From Candidatus Bathyarchaeota archaeon (lineage in GTDB: Archaea; Thermoproteota; Bathyarchaeia; Bathyarchaeales; Bathycorpusculaceae): 64,000 bases of DNA. The position numbers and the translations under genes are program-made. The first letter of the stretch is position 1. Every line of letters starts with the position of its first letter. Positions 3,836-27,544 of the stretch are shown here, piece by piece. The notes beneath the pieces are model-generated. The model was not told the DNA's origin. It saw only the letters and a list, made by a program, of their open reading frames with translations, and made no database searches. The stretch covers positions 160,001 through 224,000 of the forward strand of contig CAVYES010000007.1 in assembly GCA_963767735.1 (NCBI GenBank), written 5' to 3'.

Positions 3836-4453
3836 TTAGAGACCGGGTATATTTGTCTCTACTAAGTTTATGTCCATGCTGTAAGACTGCCCGTCAACAG
3901 TTGGAGAGGTCATGACCATTTTGATTGGCCACTGTATGCTGTTGTCAACGTAGTACGTGGCGCTGACGCCTTGGCTGCTGTATGTGTAGACAGTGCAACT
4001 TCGTGTTCCAAGGTTCGGCAAAGTTATTTGCGCGCTATAAGTGCTATTCAAAGGCAAGCCCTCTGGTTGGTATGTCATGTTTTCCCTGCTTACCCAAGTC
4101 GTAGTCGTGTTCGTCGTTGCGCCAAAGGGTGTTGACATACTGTAGCTAGTTAGGACTTGAATTTGAGTTTCGTTGAGACCGATGATTTCCATGGTTGCGT
4201 TGAAGTTAACTGTCATTGATAGGACAGTGGCTTGGCCTGTGTATGTGGCGTATGCGCCTATTTTAATCCAGGATTGAGAAGTATTTTGATTGCTAGTTTG
4301 ACTGCTAGACGGGTTCTGACCGGTTAATAATAGTCCGCTGGTTAAGGTTGCTGCTAGAGCAATAACTAGGATAGCGACTGCGATTAAGGCTATTTTCTTT
4401 TTGCTGTGGGTAACGATTTTTGTGTTTTGCTGATTGGTTTCCAATTTGGTCAC
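3836..4453 (-). CDS. Hypothetical membrane-anchored/secreted protein
   Basis: N-terminal hydrophobic helix, Ser/Thr/Gln-rich linker, beta-rich domain. Confidence 0.7.
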   Translation of the reverse strand: MTKLETNQQNTKIVTHSKKKIALIAVAILVIALAATLTSGLLLTGQNPSSSQTSNQNTSQSWIKIGAYATYTGQATVLSMTVNFNATMEIIGLNETQIQVLTSYSMSTPFGATTNTTTTWVSRENMTYQPEGLPLNSTYSAQITLPNLGTRSCTVYTYSSQGVSATYYVDNSIQWPIKMVMTSPTVDGQSYSMDINLVETNIPGL

Positions 4454-9153: not shown

Positions 9154-9591
9154 TTATCTGCTGTGGTCGGCTAATGGATAGCGGCTCATGGCGGCAAGCA
9201 TCACTTCACTGAAGCTTTTTTTGCTGAGGTGCCTGGCAAAATCAGAAGCGGCTATTATACCGACCAACACGTTATTTTTTGTAACGGGAAGCCGCCTTAT
9301 TTTGTACTTGACCATTTTCCTTGCAGCATCTCGCAAGGAGGACCCTTCCTCAATTGTTACGAGCGGATCTGACATTATCTCTGAGACTTTAGTGTCAAGT
9401 GGTTTTTTCTGCGCCATTACCCTCCGTACTAAGTCTCTTTCAGTAACTATGCCTTTAGCCACAACACCCTCCATTACTACAAGATCACCCACGTCCTGTT
9501 GGTGCATCAGCTTCGCGGCTTCAAGAACAGTTCCCAAAACATCAATTGTAATGACATTCGTCGTCATAAAATCTTTAACGGTCGGCATCAC
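9154..9591 (-). CDS. CBS-pair domain protein
   Basis: VKDFMT, GIVTERDL, VSEIMS and IRRLPV motifs. Confidence 0.9.
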   Translation of the reverse strand: MMPTVKDFMTTNVITIDVLGTVLEAAKLMHQQDVGDLVVMEGVVAKGIVTERDLVRRVMAQKKPLDTKVSEIMSDPLVTIEEGSSLRDAARKMVKYKIRRLPVTKNNVLVGIIAASDFARHLSKKSFSEVMLAAMSRYPLADHSR

Positions 9592-9770
9592 TTTAATGGT
9601 CTATAAACTACCGTATAAAAGTTTTGTGACGCTACAATTCTGGAACGGGTTCCAAATACTTTATACTTCTTGGAAGCAGGATTCGAAAATGCCTACCAAA
9701 AGGACAACTTAATATTATTGAGAAAAAGAAAATAAATCAATAACAAAGCTATCAGAGACGGGCAAAAAGC

Positions 9771-9844
9771 GGCCGGGGTGAGGTAGCTTGGTAGCCTAGA
9801 GGCCTGTGGAGCCTTTTGCCAGGGTTCAAATCCCTGCCCCGGCC
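9771..9844 (+). tRNA. tRNA-His(GTG) with genome-encoded G-1
   Basis: Acceptor GCCGGGG/CCCCGGC plus G-1:C73; anticodon arm GAGGC-CT-GTG-GA-GCCTT; T-loop GGTTCAAATCC. Confidence 0.95.
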
Positions 9845-9872
9845 CTCCTCAAACTTCCATGATCCGTTAAGT

Positions 9873-9991
9873 GCAGGGGTCGCCGAGCATGGTCAAAGGC
9901 GTAGAACTGCTCTCCGATAAGAGGGTGGTATGTTAGCTTCAGGAGCCTATCCTGTAGAGGTTCGTGGGTTCAAATCCCACCCCCTGCACCA
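9873..9991 (+). tRNA. tRNA-Leu(CAG) with a 31-nt non-canonical intron at 29/30 (9905-9935); CCA encoded
   Basis: Acceptor GCAGGGG/CCCCTGC, long variable arm; after intron removal the anticodon arm is TAGGC-TT-CAG-GA-GCCTA; the junctions form a bulge-helix-bulge. Confidence 0.92.
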
Positions 9992-10161
9992 TTTCCAATT
10001 CAGCTTTTTTCAGTTATTGTTCATAATTGGGCTAAAACTTTTGTCAAAATTGAGTTGCCCCGTTGAGTGTGGCCTTGGCTGCTATCGTCACAATGTTTAA
10101 GAAGCAATTTCTGCATTGAATAATTATTGTAATCCTTGATTTCCTTTATGGAGGTGAGTTT

Positions 10162-10683
10162 TTGGCGAAAATTAATCCAGGCTCAAATTTCAATGAAGAT
10201 AACGATATTCGAACCGCGCATCCAGGCGGTCTGCAAAATATTAACTTCATAGAACCTAAAATTGACGATAAGGGTAAACTTCACTGCCCAACTTGCGATA
10301 GAGTTTTTAGTTCAAGAGAAGATTACATCAGCCACGCTTTATCTAAACATCAGACCATAGAGCCAAATCGCGCGCGCAAGTTTTTAGCTACGGTTCCATA
10401 CAATATTGGTTTTCATTTTTTCATATCTGAAGGCAGATACACGGGGGAAACAGCTGTTAGTTTAGCAACATTTGCCAGAGAAGTTGAAGTGGCACCGATT
10501 GAATCGATCGATTTTCATTTCAAAAGATCTGACTTCCAAAAGTGGATAGCAGACACCATTAGAGACACTGAATTGTCAACGTCAATCGGAAACGTTGAAA
10601 AAGAACTTGCGGGTGAACCATTGAGAAAAAGACTTCTCTCGATCATAAATGCGCGGGTAAAGGAACTGGAAAATCAAATATAA
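10162..10683 (+). CDS. C2H2 zinc finger + DUF5752-like domain protein
   Basis: CPTC...H....H finger, then FHF...GETAVSL...IESIDFH...DFQKWI; SD GGAGGTGA upstream. Confidence 0.75.
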   Translation: MAKINPGSNFNEDNDIRTAHPGGLQNINFIEPKIDDKGKLHCPTCDRVFSSREDYISHALSKHQTIEPNRARKFLATVPYNIGFHFFISEGRYTGETAVSLATFAREVEVAPIESIDFHFKRSDFQKWIADTIRDTELSTSIGNVEKELAGEPLRKRLLSIINARVKELENQI

Positions 10684-10718
10684 CATTCGTGCAATCTAGG
10701 CGAAGAAAATAATCAAAC

Positions 10719-10760
10719 GGGGCTAACGCTTTTTTTCTAAGCGCCCCTTTTTATTTTTTT
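10719..10760 (+). terminator. Possible hairpin/oligo-T terminator
   Basis: GGGG..CGCT/AGCG-CCCC stem followed by T tracts after the DUF5752 gene. Confidence 0.4.
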
Positions 10761-10865
10761 AGTTTCTAGTGTTTTTGAGCCCTCCTGATCTAATTAACCT
10801 CTGGCTATACAGTTGTCATAAATCTAAGCAATCTTTTAAGCTAACTAAACTCTATAAATATAGGC

Positions 10866-11272
10866 ATGCCTCAAAAAAAAGCGAAGATAGTTGTCACAGA
10901 ACTAAATGAAAGAAGCGGAAAAGGTCTTGCTTTAGACAAACAGATTTTGCTGACCGAAAATATGCAGCAGCCCAAACTGCGAAGAGCATGTGAACATTAC
11001 GTTAAGAACTGGCATGATTTCTATCATGCAGGCCTGTTTTTTCAATGTCTTTCGAGGCTGTAGGCGGCAATCCTGATGAATTCCTACAAGCCCAAGCTGC
11101 CATAGCCATATTGGCTACCTCATTTGACTTGCATGATGATGTCTTGGACAAGTCTCACAAAACCTTTCGCCTTGCTGGAGCTTGGTGCCCTTCCACGCGG
11201 CTTTCTTCCCATGAGCTGCGCAATTTCTTCTCGATTTGCTTCATCAGTCTATGGAATCTGTTGAACTATTAG
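10866..11272 (+). pseudogene. Truncated, frameshifted polyprenyl-synthase-like paralog
   Basis: Two ORF pieces join (HAGLF/SFEAVGG...DLHDDVLDKS) and align with 11387-12376; similarity stops right after the first Asp-rich motif (~11160). Confidence 0.75.
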
Positions 11273-11386
11273 GCTTTGTTTCGCTTCCAGCAACGAACGC
11301 TAACTCAAAATATAAGGGGAGTTTAGAAAAAGATAGCATAGTTTTGGGAAAACAATATATCCGTTCGAAAGCAAATAAAGAACTTT

Positions 11387-12376
11387 ATGGCAAGTGAAAA
11401 TCGAACCGAAAAAGCGATGAAGATTCTGAACGAAAAAAGCGAAAAAGCACGTGCCATTGTAAAACATTCAATCCTTGAAAAACAAATTGGAATAGGGAAA
11501 GTAGACAAGGCTATTGGCCAATATCTTTCAAGATGGAATGATACCACTCGACCCGGCGTGCTTGCGCTCGCCTGCGAAGCAGTAGGCGGAAAAAGAGAAG
11601 TTGTGCCTTTGCAGGCTGCATTATTATTCATCGATGCCACAATGGATATTCATGACGACATCATTGACGAGTCAGTCACTAAGAAGAACAGGAAGACAGT
11701 TTATGGTAAGATAGGGAAGGAGGCGACCTTACTTATTGGTGATGCGTTCATGGTTGAGGGCTTCTACTATCTTCACAAAGCAATAGAAAACCTTCCGACA
11801 GCCCAGAAACTAATGATTATGGACGGAGTAAAAGATTTTCTTTCAGAAGTGGTGGAAGCGCACATATCCGAGGCTCCTTTAAAAACAAAAAAATCGAAAT
11901 TAAGACCCGAAACATACTTCCAGATTTTGACAAAAAAAGCCGCTGATATCGAGGGTCACATGAAAGTGGGCGCTATCTACGGCTGCGGCTCGGCAAAACA
12001 AATAGAGCTTATGAGTAATTATGGGAGAAATATAGGCATTCTTTTGGCGGTAAAATCGGAATTTGTTGACGTTTTTGAGCCTAAGGAGCTTACGCACAGG
12101 ATAAAATATGAAGTCTTACCGCTTCCAGTTCTTTACGCACTGAGAAGCCCTAAATATGGGAAGCAGATCCGAGAAATCTTGAAAAGAGATTGCCTCACCA
12201 ATGAGGATTGTAGAGAGCTTGTAGAAATTGTCTACGAGACAAAAGAGATTGCACTCTTAAAACTACGCATGAAAGATTTAGAAAAAGAGGCGATTATTAC
12301 AACAGATTTACTATCAAACAAAAAGGTTAAAGAAGAGCTTCAGCTATTGGCGGCTTCCATGATAGAAGACCTATAA
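11387..12376 (+). CDS. Divergent trans-prenyltransferase (polyprenyl synthetase fold), candidate ComQ-like peptide prenyltransferase
   Basis: First Asp-rich motif DIHDDIID and LLIGD intact; second motif replaced by AVKSEFVD. Confidence 0.85.
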   Translation: MASENRTEKAMKILNEKSEKARAIVKHSILEKQIGIGKVDKAIGQYLSRWNDTTRPGVLALACEAVGGKREVVPLQAALLFIDATMDIHDDIIDESVTKKNRKTVYGKIGKEATLLIGDAFMVEGFYYLHKAIENLPTAQKLMIMDGVKDFLSEVVEAHISEAPLKTKKSKLRPETYFQILTKKAADIEGHMKVGAIYGCGSAKQIELMSNYGRNIGILLAVKSEFVDVFEPKELTHRIKYEVLPLPVLYALRSPKYGKQIREILKRDCLTNEDCRELVEIVYETKEIALLKLRMKDLEKEAIITTDLLSNKKVKEELQLLAASMIEDL

Positions 12377-12380
12377 ATAC

Positions 12381-12431
12381 TTACCAAGCAAGTACCTTTG
12401 GTTTTTTCCTAATTGCTCGACGCTTCTCCAT
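12381..12431 (-). CDS. Unannotated 16-aa basic peptide ending in Trp (MEKRRAIRKKPKVLAW), candidate prenylated-peptide precursor
   Basis: ATG preceded by SD AGGTGAGGAG; TATA box CTTATAAG about 40 bp upstream; stop 4 bp from the prenyltransferase stop. Confidence 0.75.
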   Translation of the reverse strand: MEKRRAIRKKPKVLAW

Positions 12432-12482
12432 TTCTCCTCACCTGTATATCTGTTCAACACCTCTACGCTTATAAGCTTTGTC
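12432..12482 (-). promoter_or_regulatory. Archaeal promoter and SD for the 16-aa peptide
   Basis: Minus strand reads ACAAAG-CTTATAAG...ACAGGTGAGGAGAA-ATG (purine-rich BRE, TATA, SD). Confidence 0.6.
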
Positions 12483-12562
12483 ATTATACAAGACACGAAA
12501 AGCAACAAACATAGCTAAAATTAATATTAACAATCCGCAAAATTAGTATTCATAAACGCGCT

Positions 12563-13897
12563 GTGCTTAGTAGAGAGAAAATGCGCAAAATCCAAATCAG
12601 AGAGTCCTTTCCTTCACTATTTCTGCTGATCAATAGCATTGTCTGGTTCTCTCTCTCATGGCTACTTATTCAAAACTACATAGGCAACACTTCTTTCAGC
12701 AACATTTTGCTCGTATCATCCGCCTATTTTGGGGCACTTCTCTTATCAGCCATAGTTGGAGCTACATTGCTGCGTAAGAAATTAGCAGGAAAAATCGCGT
12801 TGTTATCATGGGTTTCGCTTGGAGCAGTCGCATGCCTGCTTTCGGCAGTTTTGGTTCATGGGGCAAGTTCGATCGGCCTGGTTTTTTTTTCAATTCTTCT
12901 CGGTGCATTGGCTGGATTAGGTATCCCAACTTGCCTCGCATTATTTTCAGAAGTTACAAAATCAACTAATCGCGGACGCAGCGGAGCAATAGTATTCTTT
13001 CTTATTCAAGCAGTGACGGTTCTAATCTATATTCCCGCTATCAATATAAATGTTGATAACGATTTCTTGGTTCTCGCTGCATGGAGAATCGTGGGCGTAC
13101 TAAGCATATTTTTCTGGGTGCCTCATGAGAAAATTTCTGAGCAGAGCAAAAGTAAGCTCTTAAGCATCATTCGTGAAAGAACTGTTTTTCTCTTATTCAT
13201 TCCATGGTTTCTACTCACCACCGTAAACTTCGTGGAACAGCCTCTAATCCAGCATTACTTTGGAACAGACCTGTACAACACCTACCAGATGGTCGAAATC
13301 GTAATTATTGGCGCTTCAGCTTTTATCGGAGGAGTAATTTGCGACTTCAGAGGACGAAAGGTTTCAGGTATTATAGGCTTTATCTTGTTAGGCGTAGGCT
13401 ACGCTTTTCTAAGCCTTTTATCTGGAACCCAGATTTCCCAAATTCTATGGGTCTTGTGTGATGGAGTTGCTTGGGGATTCTTATATGTTACATTCATCTT
13501 CGTTGTCTGGGGAGATATTTCCCAGGGAAGAGTCCCTGAAAAGTATTACCTTTTAGGCGGCATACCGTTTCTATTATCCAACTTGATCTCAGTTTTGGTC
13601 CAACCTTTTGTAGAGTATGTTCCAATAACCACTTCGTTCTCTTTTGCCAGCTTCTTCTTATTTGTAGCAATTTTGCCTCTACTGTACGCCCCTGAAACTC
13701 TGCCCGAGAAAGCCCTCAAAGACAGAGACCTAAAGGGATACGCAGAGAAAGCCCTTAAGCAGGCCAACAAGGAGGCAAGCAAAAACCAGAAAAAAGATTC
13801 AGCCAAGGCTGAAAAAGAAAACGCGAGCGGAAATGAAGAGTCTGAAGAGAACCCTGCATATGAGAAAGCTCGAAAGTTAGCGGAAAAATACTATTAA
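12563..13897 (+). CDS. MFS-fold membrane protein with charged C-terminal tail
   Basis: About 12 TM segments, GVICDFRGRK motif-A-like loop, PETLPEK after the last helix. Confidence 0.8.
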   Translation: MLSREKMRKIQIRESFPSLFLLINSIVWFSLSWLLIQNYIGNTSFSNILLVSSAYFGALLLSAIVGATLLRKKLAGKIALLSWVSLGAVACLLSAVLVHGASSIGLVFFSILLGALAGLGIPTCLALFSEVTKSTNRGRSGAIVFFLIQAVTVLIYIPAININVDNDFLVLAAWRIVGVLSIFFWVPHEKISEQSKSKLLSIIRERTVFLLFIPWFLLTTVNFVEQPLIQHYFGTDLYNTYQMVEIVIIGASAFIGGVICDFRGRKVSGIIGFILLGVGYAFLSLLSGTQISQILWVLCDGVAWGFLYVTFIFVVWGDISQGRVPEKYYLLGGIPFLLSNLISVLVQPFVEYVPITTSFSFASFFLFVAILPLLYAPETLPEKALKDRDLKGYAEKALKQANKEASKNQKKDSAKAEKENASGNEESEENPAYEKARKLAEKYY

Positions 13898-13898
13898 G

Positions 13899-15056
13899 TT
13901 GGAGTCGCATTCTCAACTCTGCATGTTCTTCCACGTAATAGTGACAACCAAGTGCAATTTGCAGTGCCGCTACTGTTTCGGTGAGTCACTGGATGACTTT
14001 GACGAAAGCTTTGGCGACGATATAGAGGTAGATTATGCTCTTCCCGGCAAAATAAACTATGATGTAGAGCTGCTGGAAAAGTTTTGCCGAAAGGACCCGG
14101 ATTGCGTCCTAACTTTTTACGGCGGCGAACCCTTGCTTGGTGCTAACAAAATCAAGCAGGTAATGGACAATGTTGAGGCCAAGCTTTTTATGATTCAGAC
14201 AAACGGGTTGCTGCTTGATAAGCTCGAGCCAAAATACGTTAACCGCTTTCACACTATTTTAGTATCTGTTGATGGCGAAGAAGCTTTAACTGATTATTAC
14301 AGGGGAAACGGAACTTTCCGCAAAGTCGTAAACAACCTCAAATTAATCAAGAAAAACGGCTTCAGAGGAGAATTAATTGCTAGAATGACAATAATGGAGC
14401 AAACAGACATCGACAAACAAGTCCGATGGCTCTTAGACAACGATGAATTTTCGTTTTCCTCAGTGCATTGGCAATTGAACGCTGGTTTTTGGGGAAACGA
14501 TTACCAAAGGCGCAACTTTGAACCATGGACAGAGACAAGCTACATTCCTGGCGTAAAAAAGCTTGCAAGATTCTGGGTGGACCAAATGGAGGAGGAGAAG
14601 GGCGTTGTTTTGAAGCTTTACCCTTTGCTGGGAATTGCCAATTCGCTTTTGCGTGGAGAGAAAAATTGTTTTATGCGTTGTGGAGGAGGCTGGATAAACT
14701 ATGCCATTCAAACTGACGGTTACATAATTCCTTGCCCAACCATGTGGGGGATGAAAAAGTACTATTTAGGCAACATTAGCAATACTGATCCATGTAAAAT
14801 AAAGAAAATTTTTGTTGACCAGCCGCCATGTACAAAATGCTCGATTCTGAACGTTTGTGGCGGAAGATGCCTGTATGCAAATATAACTAAACGATGGAAT
14901 GATGAAGATTACAGTAAAGTTTGCCGCACAGTTGCAAAACTCGCTGACGCTGTTAAGGCTGAGGTTCCACGGATTCAGCATTTGCTCAAGAAAGGAAAAG
15001 TCAACATAAAAGATTTCGATTTCATCAAGTATAATGGGTGCGAAATTATACCATAG
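13899..15056 (+). CDS. Radical SAM/SPASM protein resembling the archaeal AF0577 (TIGR04084) family; likely start ATG 13923
   Basis: CNLQCRYC, FYGGEP and QTNG; SPASM cysteines CGGG...PCP...CTKC..LNVCGGRC. Confidence 0.85.
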   Translation: MESHSQLCMFFHVIVTTKCNLQCRYCFGESLDDFDESFGDDIEVDYALPGKINYDVELLEKFCRKDPDCVLTFYGGEPLLGANKIKQVMDNVEAKLFMIQTNGLLLDKLEPKYVNRFHTILVSVDGEEALTDYYRGNGTFRKVVNNLKLIKKNGFRGELIARMTIMEQTDIDKQVRWLLDNDEFSFSSVHWQLNAGFWGNDYQRRNFEPWTETSYIPGVKKLARFWVDQMEEEKGVVLKLYPLLGIANSLLRGEKNCFMRCGGGWINYAIQTDGYIIPCPTMWGMKKYYLGNISNTDPCKIKKIFVDQPPCTKCSILNVCGGRCLYANITKRWNDEDYSKVCRTVAKLADAVKAEVPRIQHLLKKGKVNIKDFDFIKYNGCEIIP

Positions 15057-15079
15057 CTCTTGAGGTTATCCATTATATG

Positions 15080-16390
15080 TCATTTCCTTTTTCTGAATAG
15101 TTTGTGTCCTTCTATTTCAGCGTGAAACTCGAATCCGACTTCTATTAGTTTGATTGCGTCTTCCATTGTATCTGCCACTTTGACAGTGAATTGGTCGTTT
15201 GCGTCGCCGTTATAGAGCATTTCTTCGAGGTGAATGTAGTTTTCTGTTGAGGTGATGCTTTTGTGTCCTAGAATCATTTTAACGTGCCATGGGTCTTTAG
15301 TTTTATGTTGTTCTGTGGTTGCTTTCCAATGTCTGAAAGTGTGGAAGTGAATTAGTATCAGTTTTGGGTTAGCTTGGCGTTCTATTATTCTTCTTTTCTG
15401 TAGGAAGAAGCTAGTTCGCATGTCGTCTGCACTGGCAAATATTTTGTTTTTCCTTGCGGGGTTTCTGTTGATTCTAGGAAGCCTTGAAACCATTTCAATA
15501 GCTTTAGCGGATAGCGGCAATATTCTGCTGTTGGATCCTTTTTCTGCTTTTATCCTTACTTTTCGTTGTTCCCAATCTATCGAGAGCCAATCAAGTTCCG
15601 CTATTTCGCCACATCTTGCGCCCGTTTCTTTTAGTAATTGGCAAAAACACGCTTGTTTCTTTCCTAGAGCTGCGATTAATAGGTCTATTTCGTTTTCTGT
15701 GGGTATGTATGGAATTTCGTGTTCGTCGGAGTATTTTGGGACTCGCCATCTTATTTGATTGTAATCAAACCAGCTTCCCAATATTCCTGTAACAGTTTTC
15801 TTTGTGCTTTCTTTAATCGTTGATTTAGCCAACGCTGCCTTAGTGCTTTCGGGATCAAATAGATCTGCTCCGTCCTGCAATAACCGCTTGAAGGATTTTC
15901 GATAGTTTAAGATTGTGCCGTCTTTTCTTCCATCATTCTTTAGCTGTATAAGGAATTTCTCGATTTGCAGCCATGCTTTAACTTCGTTTTCTGTTGGTGA
16001 CTGTTTCCCTTTCTCCGCGCAAGTCTTGATTTCTTGCGTGGAAGCCAAATTTTTCGCATCCTGCGGGATTACGCTTATTTGACTATTTACTTTGTAGGCT
16101 AATTCCTTTTTAAATGATTGTTCAGAAAGATGCTTACTAAATCTGTGCCCATAATCCGCACACCTGTACCGTTGGATGGGCTCGATTGATTGTGCATTTA
16201 ACGGTGCATCTCTGAAACCATCTTTGAATATTCGGTCACTCCCACATTCGGGGCATTCCATAGGCTGAGGCTCTGTAGGTGGGCATTGCGTCTGGCATGT
16301 TTGCCACTCCCCAGAAAACGCATTATCTAATCCCGCAGATGCAATACTTGAGGAGCTGCCCTTTTCCTGAACCTCAACCATAACTTTCAA
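15080..16390 (-). CDS. Tyrosine recombinase/integrase with N-terminal Zn ribbon
   Basis: TGARCGE, HTFRH and LGHKSITSTENY catalytic motifs; CPECGS...YRC N-terminal ribbon. Confidence 0.92.
   Translation of the reverse strand: MKVMVEVQEKGSSSSIASAGLDNAFSGEWQTCQTQCPPTEPQPMECPECGSDRIFKDGFRDAPLNAQSIEPIQRYRCADYGHRFSKHLSEQSFKKELAYKVNSQISVIPQDAKNLASTQEIKTCAEKGKQSPTENEVKAWLQIEKFLIQLKNDGRKDGTILNYRKSFKRLLQDGADLFDPESTKAALAKSTIKESTKKTVTGILGSWFDYNQIRWRVPKYSDEHEIPYIPTENEIDLLIAALGKKQACFCQLLKETGARCGEIAELDWLSIDWEQRKVRIKAEKGSNSRILPLSAKAIEMVSRLPRINRNPARKNKIFASADDMRTSFFLQKRRIIERQANPKLILIHFHTFRHWKATTEQHKTKDPWHVKMILGHKSITSTENYIHLEEMLYNGDANDQFTVKVADTMEDAIKLIEVGFEFHAEIEGHKLFRKRK

Positions 16391-24928: not shown

Positions 24929-27544
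<2,616 letters not shown>

Follow-up and report, generated by a model that had tools for sequence, protein, structure and literature searches.

A conserved micro-gene at the centre of a hypervariable three-gene cassette of Bathyarchaeia, with a candidate role as a prenylated peptide

We analysed 64,000 nucleotides from the genome of a Candidatus Bathyarchaeota archaeon (assembly GCA_963767735.1, contig CAVYES010000007.1, positions 160,001 to 224,000 of the forward strand), hereafter the window, focusing on a minus-strand open reading frame (ORF) of 16 codons at 12381..12431. It lies between the genes of an isoprenyl diphosphate synthase (IDS)-like protein and of a major facilitator superfamily (MFS) transporter. 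Judged from sequence comparison, this micro-ORF is a conserved, independently promoted micro-gene of soil Bathyarchaeia, and we regard it as almost certainly a real gene. It stands at the centre of a three-gene cassette, hypervariable and not described before, in Bathyarchaeia. As to its function, we suggest by inference and analogy, with confidence somewhat short of even, that the peptide could be both the acceptor substrate of the IDS-like enzyme and the cargo of the transporter, as in the ComQ/ComX or PalQ/PalX pairs, under a PadR-type operator.

An initial annotation of the window had described a 16-residue frame with a full set of expression signals, and the sequence confirms all of its coordinates. 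The ATG (12431-12429) opens 16 codons, translated as MEKRRAIRKKPKVLAW, which end at a TAA (12383-12381); Lys and Arg together account for seven of these residues, as had been stated. The Shine-Dalgarno (SD)-like sequence GGTGAGGAG is located 2 nt 5' of the ATG, at 12434..12442 of the minus strand, where AGGTGAGGAG (12443-12434) covers the ribosome site, and SD-like words also precede the related ORFs. An archaeal promoter occupies 12468..12481 of the minus strand and is composed of a palindromic TATA box, CTTATAAG (12468-12475), and, on its upstream side, of ACAAAG (12476-12481), which resembles a B recognition element (BRE). The 3' end of the TATA box is 37 nt from the ATG, with a spacer of 25 nt to AGGTGAGGAG. 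Across loci the aligned promoter reads (C)RAAA followed by TTTTAAAG or CTTATAAG, with BRE and TATA kept and pointing towards the ORF, and this element forms part of the nhmmer profile that recovers the relatives. Thus, the gene features tested, namely start codon, SD and oriented BRE/TATA at a proper distance, are all present and are kept in relatives. The annotated placement, 4 bp from the stop of a prenyltransferase-like gene and before the MFS region, is also correct: the plus-strand IDS-like ORF stops at 12376, leaving 4 nt to the convergent micro-ORF stop, and the MFS gene begins at GTG 12563 or ATG 12581.

A T6 run at 12402..12407 of the plus strand, 3' of the IDS-like stop, is a likely oligo-T terminator, a signal whose use is established in archaea. 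Since the two AAA Lys codons of the micro-ORF are complementary to this run, the stretch may serve two purposes. Rfam gave no match at a permissive threshold in 12250-12650, and the putative micro-ORF transcript folds no better than shuffled sequences (z -1.2). Short contigs from four soil DNA runs, matching 151-529 nt of the window, do not differ from it within the micro-ORF; they are 100% identical in three of the runs and carry two differing letters (14193, 14981) in run X5. In part they reach the cassette borders (11313-11543 and 13530-13680) without conflict. Since these contigs may stem from the source study, and thus not be independent of the assembly, little weight is given to them.

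The locus sample comprised the region upstream of the orthologue of the radical S-adenosylmethionine (SAM) gene that follows the MFS gene, taken from 38 genomes, 21 loci found via the IDS-like protein, and 29 loci retrieved when 151 genomes of the order were searched with a profile. After removal of six duplicates, 61 spacers downstream of IDS-like genes were left, and these were searched with fixed criteria: an antisense frame of 9-32 codons with an ATG, GTG or TTG start, an SD-like word upstream, at least 20% Lys plus Arg, and a stop no more than 130 nt from the convergent stop. Such an ORF was found in 54 of the 61 spacers, compared with 4 of 61 for the sense strand and with a mean of 7.3 (maximum 14) for 50 composition-preserving shuffles of the same spacers; 48 of the 54 ORFs start with ATG. 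The seven misses were inspected by eye and included an apparent frameshift in an A-run (L027), a frame that is kept, with no canonical start (L028), three ORFs excluded by a filter or by running beyond the cut (L075, L089 and L104), and two spacers with nothing convincing (L110 and L112). Since the automatic pick in L026 is probably the wrong ORF of its spacer, it was dropped, and the peptide statistics use 53 sequences. In the whole genome of the window (3,044,997 bp, both strands), 11 ORFs satisfy loose criteria (10-25 residues, Lys or Glu at residue 2, at least 30% Lys/Arg, Trp in the last five residues and an SD-like word upstream). A DNA profile of promoter plus ORF has one match in this genome at E 6.4e-11, with the runner-up at E 0.028.

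Codon-level conservation, which the initial annotation had named as a check, looks like the result of selection on the protein. In the allele type of the window (8 sequences, 16 codons, no indels), the ratio of nonsynonymous to synonymous polymorphism (pN/pS) is 0.34 in frame versus 0.56-1.07 in the other five frames, and the corresponding values for a second type (4 sequences) are 0.31 and 0.62-1.32, the ORF frame being the lowest of the six in both groups. In the alignment, Arg is encoded by CGT, CGC, CGG, AGG and AGA, there are Lys/Arg exchanges requiring two or three base changes, and the stop is either TAA or TGA; in a broader group of 17 sequences, the invariant Arg is encoded by all six Arg codons. 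Furthermore, promoter and micro-ORF are present twice, with the peptide kept, in L061 (~3998-4408), L071 (~4005-4342) and L065 (2571-2670 and 4002-4101). In L065, a synonymous AGA/CGA change separates the two copies, the second of which is located upstream of the IDS-like gene.

The 53 peptides are 12-22 residues long and contain on average 36% Lys plus Arg. The family has a polybasic N-terminal part, usually a K-P-x-R-like motif, and a hydrophobic or aromatic tail of 3-5 residues. Indeed, P-x-R is found within the last nine residues of 34 peptides, while the window-type peptides have K-P-K-V instead. A single Cys occurs in the entire set. In 45 of the 53 cases the ORF stop is within about 20 nt of the convergent stop, and in six the two overlap. 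The initial annotation had expected orthologous regions to keep both the frame and the terminal Trp. The frame is kept, together with start, SD and promoter, in 54 of the 61 spacers. The terminal Trp, on the other hand, is invariant in the aligned sequences of the window's allele type (8/8) and ends 15 of the 53 peptides family-wide, as many as end in Ile (15/53); it is a trait of some allele types, including that of the window, and not of the whole family. The precursor of a modified peptide, which the initial annotation had expected from a basic leader plus a Trp-terminal core, is still the best reading of the peptide, with the reservations that Trp is not family-wide and that the likelier modifier is the convergent IDS-like protein rather than a generic maturase of ribosomally made peptides that are modified after translation (RiPPs).

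Alignments indicate that the IDS-like gene, the peptide gene and the N-terminal part of the MFS gene diversify jointly, as deeply diverged allele types exchanged between lineages, with conserved flanks. The MFS ORF (12563..13897, plus strand, from GTG 12563 with ATG 12581 as the likely start) matches PF07690 (MFS_1) with 53 bits; the first ~360 residues of the protein belong to the variable block, whereas the last 40-80 are conserved, and a phmmer search with it against PDB gave no match. The radical SAM/SPASM gene (13899..15056, plus strand, TIGR04084 with 303.5 bits for a cut-off of 225) starts 1 nt after the MFS stop and forms the conserved flank. In blastn comparisons the allele-type cassette extends approximately over 11340..13554 of the plus strand, where no DNA similarity is found to the closest relatives as defined by the radical SAM gene. 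Compared with L021, L022 and L023, the gap goes from 11155 to 13554-13644, while similarity to L046 runs from 11340 to 14932. For L022, identity is 86-88% in 9156-9992, 72% in 10829-11155 and 81% in 13554-15080, with nothing between 11155 and 13554. The window also keeps, at 10829..11272 of the plus strand, a remnant of another IDS-like allele type, composed of a promoter and about 95 N-terminal codons, now frameshifted. Its ORFs (10866-11063 and 11045-11272) are 60-78% identical to the IDS-like N-termini of L022, L023, L031 and L033, and its DNA (10829-11155) is 72-76% identical to L022 and L023. Since this is the allele type of close relatives, an older allele has evidently been replaced by the present cassette.

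The gene order IDS-like, antisense ORF, MFS and radical SAM is found in 16 of 20 loci retrieved via the IDS-like protein, the other four ending too early. In the order-wide sample of 29 loci, an MFS gene comes after the IDS-like gene in 28, and the peptide ORF was detected in 25 by the search criteria applied; the trio also exists in other families of the order, there without the radical SAM gene. The peptide gene always has the IDS-like and MFS genes on its two sides, and it varies with them. Within the genus, radical SAM proteins are 68-89% identical to that of the window, compared with 30-66% for the IDS-like and MFS proteins, and the rank orders are discordant. For instance, in the three relatives whose radical SAM proteins are most similar (84-89%), the IDS-like proteins reach just 33-36% identity, while one relative at 69% has an IDS-like protein at 66%. 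When eight pairs with close radical SAM proteins and different types were compared in 40-residue windows, identity per window was 10-55% for the IDS-like protein, 12-55% for the first ~360 residues of the MFS protein, 48-95% for its last window or two, and 70-100% for the radical SAM protein. The peptides were sorted by eye into seven types. On the IDS-like tree these types require the smallest possible number of changes, six (no value as low in 200 shuffles), versus 16 changes on the radical SAM tree for a shuffled mean of 18.9. Approximately unbiased (AU) tests rejected both forced topologies: the clade defined by the IDS-like proteins when imposed on radical SAM data (p 3.5e-7), and the one defined by radical SAM when imposed on IDS-like data (p 2.9e-50); since the clades were chosen after the trees had been seen, these p values are descriptive.

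The IDS-like protein (11387..12376, plus strand, 329 residues), convergent with the micro-ORF, matches PF00348 (polyprenyl_synt) with 75 bits; it also matches 14 NCBIfam synthase models, in each case with a score far under the curated cut-off. An AlphaFold2 model derived from 34 family sequences (mean predicted local distance difference test score, pLDDT, of 94) has the all-alpha fold of trans-isoprenyl diphosphate synthases: in Foldseek, template modelling (TM) scores are 0.7-0.8 to these synthases, with 0.8 to geranylgeranyl diphosphate (GGPP) synthase and 0.81 to 1wy0. Motifs were compared in an alignment of 36 family members and the three ordinary synthases encoded by the genome of the window. 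The DDxxD of the first aspartate-rich motif (FARM) is conserved in 36/36, inside an invariant D-x-H-D-D-x-x-D, and so is the Lys of the KT motif (36/36). By contrast with these, neither the Lys nor the Arg of motif I (GKRxR) is found in any member (0/36 each), the RRG after FARM is replaced by Lys in 33/36 followed by a residue other than Arg, with the second Arg at 0/36, and the basic residue of GKxT after the second aspartate-rich motif (SARM) is Cys in 22/36. The first SARM position is D in 11, S in 9, E in 9 and A in 7 of the 36, and the second is E in 21 and D in 15, the window having SEFVD. SARM is thus degenerate in many members, yet 11 of 36 begin with Asp, and the pattern is unlike NDxxD. 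The three housekeeping paralogues keep most synthase motifs, while the features of chain-elongating synthases, the basic residues binding isopentenyl diphosphate (IPP) and FQxxDDxxD, are not found in the IDS-like family. The retained motifs are those that hold the allylic diphosphate, and the lost ones are those that hold IPP (in part PMC5331326). Since the donor site is kept and the IPP-binding residues are lost, the enzyme should ionise a prenyl diphosphate without condensing it with IPP. The family counts 107 clusters at E up to 1e-30 among 1.84 billion representatives; its few named members are labelled polyprenyl or GGPP synthases of Bathyarchaeota, and four longer members (P0005, P0029, P0030 and P0096) showed no informative fused domain.

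The micro-gene promoter contains an operator-like 17-mer, TGTTGAACAGATATACA (12443..12459, minus strand), with the TATA box on one side and the SD on the other. Its degenerate form, TGTTSRACAGATAWACA, has exactly two copies in the 3.04-Mb genome; the second one belongs to the promoter of one of two divergent PadR genes on contig C4, where it has the equivalent position, again between TATA box and start codon. By our own arithmetic the chance expectation for the degenerate word is about 0.003 per genome; both copies were already known when the word was defined. In relatives, the micro-ORF TATA box has an inverted copy on its other flank. A general promoter feature was considered as an explanation of this inverted-repeat motif and was rejected, as the motif is nearly unique in the genome. 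Furthermore, in two other families of the order (f6 and f7), a PadR-family gene lies immediately 5' of the IDS-like gene in 7/7 loci, and a second, divergent PadR gene is present in 5/7. Since the micro-gene and a PadR promoter have the 17-mer in common, and PadR genes adjoin the cassette in those seven loci, the micro-gene is probably under PadR-type control through this predicted operator. A separate observation concerns the divergent PadR pair itself (L121 1200-1560; genome G000, contig C4, 524220-525083), in which a perfect palindrome, ATATGTCC-N6-GGACATAT, is located between the genes, beside the 17-mer; this arrangement also adjoins the cassette in L114, L116, L119 and L120.

In the mechanism that we propose, the IDS-like protein would transfer a prenyl group to an acceptor other than IPP, given that the donor site is kept and the IPP residues are lost. 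The acceptor would most likely be the C-terminal tail of the peptide (its Trp in the window's allele type), as for ComQ acting on ComX and PalQ on PalX. The MFS protein could then export, or take up, the lipidated cationic peptide. The operator shared with PadR-family genes covers the predicted transcription start of the micro-gene and may thereby provide PadR-type control. The allele-type structure suggests a specificity system, which could serve either kin signalling or antagonism with self-protection.

Several observations weigh against this scheme. The search of sequencing runs found the locus in 18 DNA runs and in 0 RNA runs. The Lys-rich part of the micro-ORF overlaps the plus-strand oligo-T, so its conservation could partly serve termination of the IDS-like gene, and in the 17-sequence group mentioned above (last nine codons) pN/pS is 0.62 in the ORF frame and 0.61 in one antisense frame. 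The comparison of trees depends on peptide types grouped by eye and on AU clades named post hoc. Foldseek ranks canonical synthases over the indole prenyltransferase Ord1 (rank 27, TM 0.70), and the fold thus does not single out a peptide transferase; identical motif losses would fit an IDS-derived terminal terpene synthase. As for the acceptor, Trp is present in the last five residues of only 30 of the 53 peptides, Trp or Tyr in 40, and the remaining 13 have neither in the tail, for instance ...PVRVLP and ...PVSISI. Finally, according to a 2026 review (PMC13290415), Trp is the target of every trans-IDS-like peptide prenyltransferase characterised so far, and these enzymes have in common a Gln just before SARM, to which the review assigns Trp recognition; this Gln is found in 0/36 of our family members, where the position is A in 14, T in 7, I in 6, V in 6, L in 2 and S in 1.

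Other explanations account for part of these data. It could be that the peptide is made and remains unmodified, acting as a small protein in an accessory or regulatory role; it would bind to the MFS protein, the IDS-like enzyme or PadR and co-diversify with its partner. Conservation and co-diversification would be identical in this case; the tails devoid of Trp and Tyr, the lack of the Trp-recognition Gln, and the tie of the cassette to PadR genes, with one of which it has an operator in common, fit as well. On the other hand, peptides of 12-22 residues with about 36% Lys/Arg cannot span a membrane like the known small proteins that bind transporters, an obligate IDS-fold enzyme without an IPP site would be left unexplained, and duplications of the peptide gene alone are more typical of precursor genes. 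We consider this explanation unlikely, though deserving of serious attention. It seems improbable that the act of transcription or translation matters rather than the product, i.e. that antisense transcription into the IDS-like 3' end, or pausing on the polybasic KKP, tunes the convergent gene or the divergent MFS promoter. The close or overlapping stops (45 and 6 of 53, as above), a transcript that would complement the IDS-like 3' end and terminator, and a promoter bearing a predicted operator could favour such a mechanism. However, it does not account for the amino-acid-level conservation of the tail and P-x-R, with six Arg codons and low pN/pS, nor for the non-polybasic tail being type-specific and co-varying with the enzyme clades, and the RNA has neither significant structure nor an Rfam match.

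That the micro-ORF is not a gene at all, and merely the purine-rich complement of a terminator region that is open by chance, is scarcely credible. It is true that the plus-strand T-run corresponds to Lys codons and that open frames of 16 codons are common by chance, but the excess over shuffled spacers (54 of 61 versus a mean of 7.3) was obtained with composition kept, start codon, SD and oriented BRE/TATA are conserved, and the pN/pS signal is frame-specific. The radical SAM gene raises another possibility, namely that the peptide is the precursor of a RiPP modified by the radical SAM/SPASM enzyme of TIGR04084 and exported by the MFS protein. Indeed, the next-best named matches of this enzyme are peptide maturases, e.g. 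PapB and the nif11-type maturase, and its gene lies 1-30 nt after the MFS gene in most loci of the window's family (the 16 of 20 mentioned above). In families f6 and f7, by contrast, the cassette has no radical SAM gene nearby in 7/7 loci examined, the MFS gene being followed by PKD-domain, ParA-like, flavodoxin or DUF5752 genes, and radical SAM orthologues of other families sit among unrelated genes, without the cassette. The enzyme itself lies outside the variable block and keeps 70-100% identity per window where the peptides are unrelated in sequence. Moreover, one Cys in 53 peptides offers little for thioether links, and the radical SAM domain begins at residue 13, which leaves no N-terminal space for a domain that recognises the peptide. 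It is thus probable that the radical SAM enzyme is not the partner of the peptide, and we doubt strongly that the peptide is such a RiPP; since the IDS-like protein co-diversifies with the peptide, it is a likelier modifier than a generic RiPP maturase. No paper on TIGR04084 was found, and AF0577 gave unrelated matches only, in the literature searched.

Prenylation of the peptide tail, the reading that we prefer, has its closest parallels in bacterial systems. ComQ, which is homologous to trans-IDS enzymes and has a conserved FARM and a pseudo-SARM, prenylates the ComX Trp three or four residues from the end (PMC5331326). The comQXPA locus is highly polymorphic, the N-terminal membrane domain of ComP being variable and its cytoplasmic part conserved, and that census makes no mention of archaea (PMC4008528). 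StheQ/StheX of Sphaerobacter carries the system to Chloroflexi, beyond Firmicutes according to the authors, in a text in which the word 'archaea' is absent (bioRxiv 10.64898/2026.08.29.745113). The archaeal locus resembles ComQ-ComX and StheQ-StheX in the trans-IDS fold, the intact FARM, a SARM that is degenerate in many members, the adjacent gene for a small peptide and, in the window's allele type, the C-terminal Trp, and resembles ComQ-ComX also in being polymorphic, with enzyme, peptide and the N-terminal membrane part of the next gene's product co-varying while the rest is conserved. Unlike ComX (53-58 residues), the archaeal peptide has 12-22 residues and no long leader; the peptide gene is antisense and convergent rather than co-directional, and its neighbour encodes an MFS protein, not a histidine kinase. 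Compared with ComQ as described in print, the Gln before SARM is missing (0/36) and many members lack Trp.

PalQ of Paenibacillus alvei modifies a strictly C-terminal Trp, on a core (DNVRRFFW) that is basic and then aromatic, and favours Gly before Trp (PMC10853753 and PMC13290415). The window core, ...KKPKVLAW, is likewise basic and then aromatic, and allele type C ends in ...GGWY or ...AGWI, with Gly before Trp. PalX differs by its nitrile-hydratase-type leader domain, which is cleaved, PalQ keeps the Gln by SARM, and its cluster has a histidine kinase. Since the Gln is absent and Trp is not family-wide, we do not file the locus as a member of the ComQ or PalQ families; we propose, by analogy, that it may work like these systems, possibly with a wider acceptor range. 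Two other systems share single aspects with it. Microcin C is made from the MccA heptapeptide by MccB and exported by the MFS pump MccC, i.e. from a very short leaderless precursor gene. The likeness is confined to the tiny leaderless precursor and the MFS protein, as its adenylyltransferase modifier gene is not in the present locus. In staphylococcal agrBDCA, allele groups differ in the processing enzyme, in the peptide and in the N-terminal part of the sensor, between conserved flanks; its thiolactone chemistry and its proteins are different, and the likeness is in population genetics only.

In the literature searched, neither peptide-based signalling nor a ribosomal lipopeptide is described for any archaeon, and searches for Bathyarchaeia with RiPPs or peptide quorum sensing returned nothing relevant by title. 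Few uncultured archaea of soils and sediments are as abundant as Bathyarchaeia, and to our knowledge nothing is known about interactions among them. In its most far-reaching form, which we hold to be quite unlikely, our proposal would make the locus the first archaeal peptide-pheromone (pherotype) system: a leaderless micro-peptide would be lipidated on its tail by a transferase of a new IDS-derived branch that also accepts residues other than Trp, with allele-specific export and recognition by the MFS protein and sensing by PadR, the types being kept by balancing selection and swapped between Bathyarchaeia species. The locus provides a test set of three genes, a peptide that can be made as a synthetic 16-mer, and dozens of natural allele pairs for work on specificity. 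If the enzyme does lipidate Trp-less peptides, the chemistry of IDS-derived prenyltransferases would be wider, which would be of interest for peptide-lipidation tools. More generally, the locus shows that a conserved cassette can be centred on a gene of 51 nt that gene callers do not see.

A few further features of the loci and of the window were observed. Several genomes of another family have two tandem IDS-like genes or 2-4 cassettes, L088 and L089 (genomes G069 and G042) being examples. In the window, the conserved left flank contains two tRNA genes (9772..9988, plus strand), and 9668-9992 is 79-86% identical to L021 and L022. The second tRNA (9873-9988, 116 nt) is called by Rfam beside tRNA-His and not by ARAGORN; it is probably an intron-containing archaeal tRNA. 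Between this flank and the remnant of the older allele, the stretch 9993-10828, about 580 nt longer than the corresponding gap of L022, contains an ORF at 10162-10683 (C2H2 zinc-finger/DUF5752), and a DUF5752 gene also adjoins the cassette in L119. Directly downstream of the radical SAM gene, a tyrosine recombinase is encoded on the minus strand at 15080-16390 (XerA-like at 89 bits, which is below the cut-off, with weak matches to zinc ribbons in its N-terminal part); the related loci, most of which stop near this point, showed no homologue. Further away, abutting homopolymers at 24931-26669 (T x148, A x180 and T x1411) explain a block of 20-24% G+C and look like an assembly or placeholder artefact.

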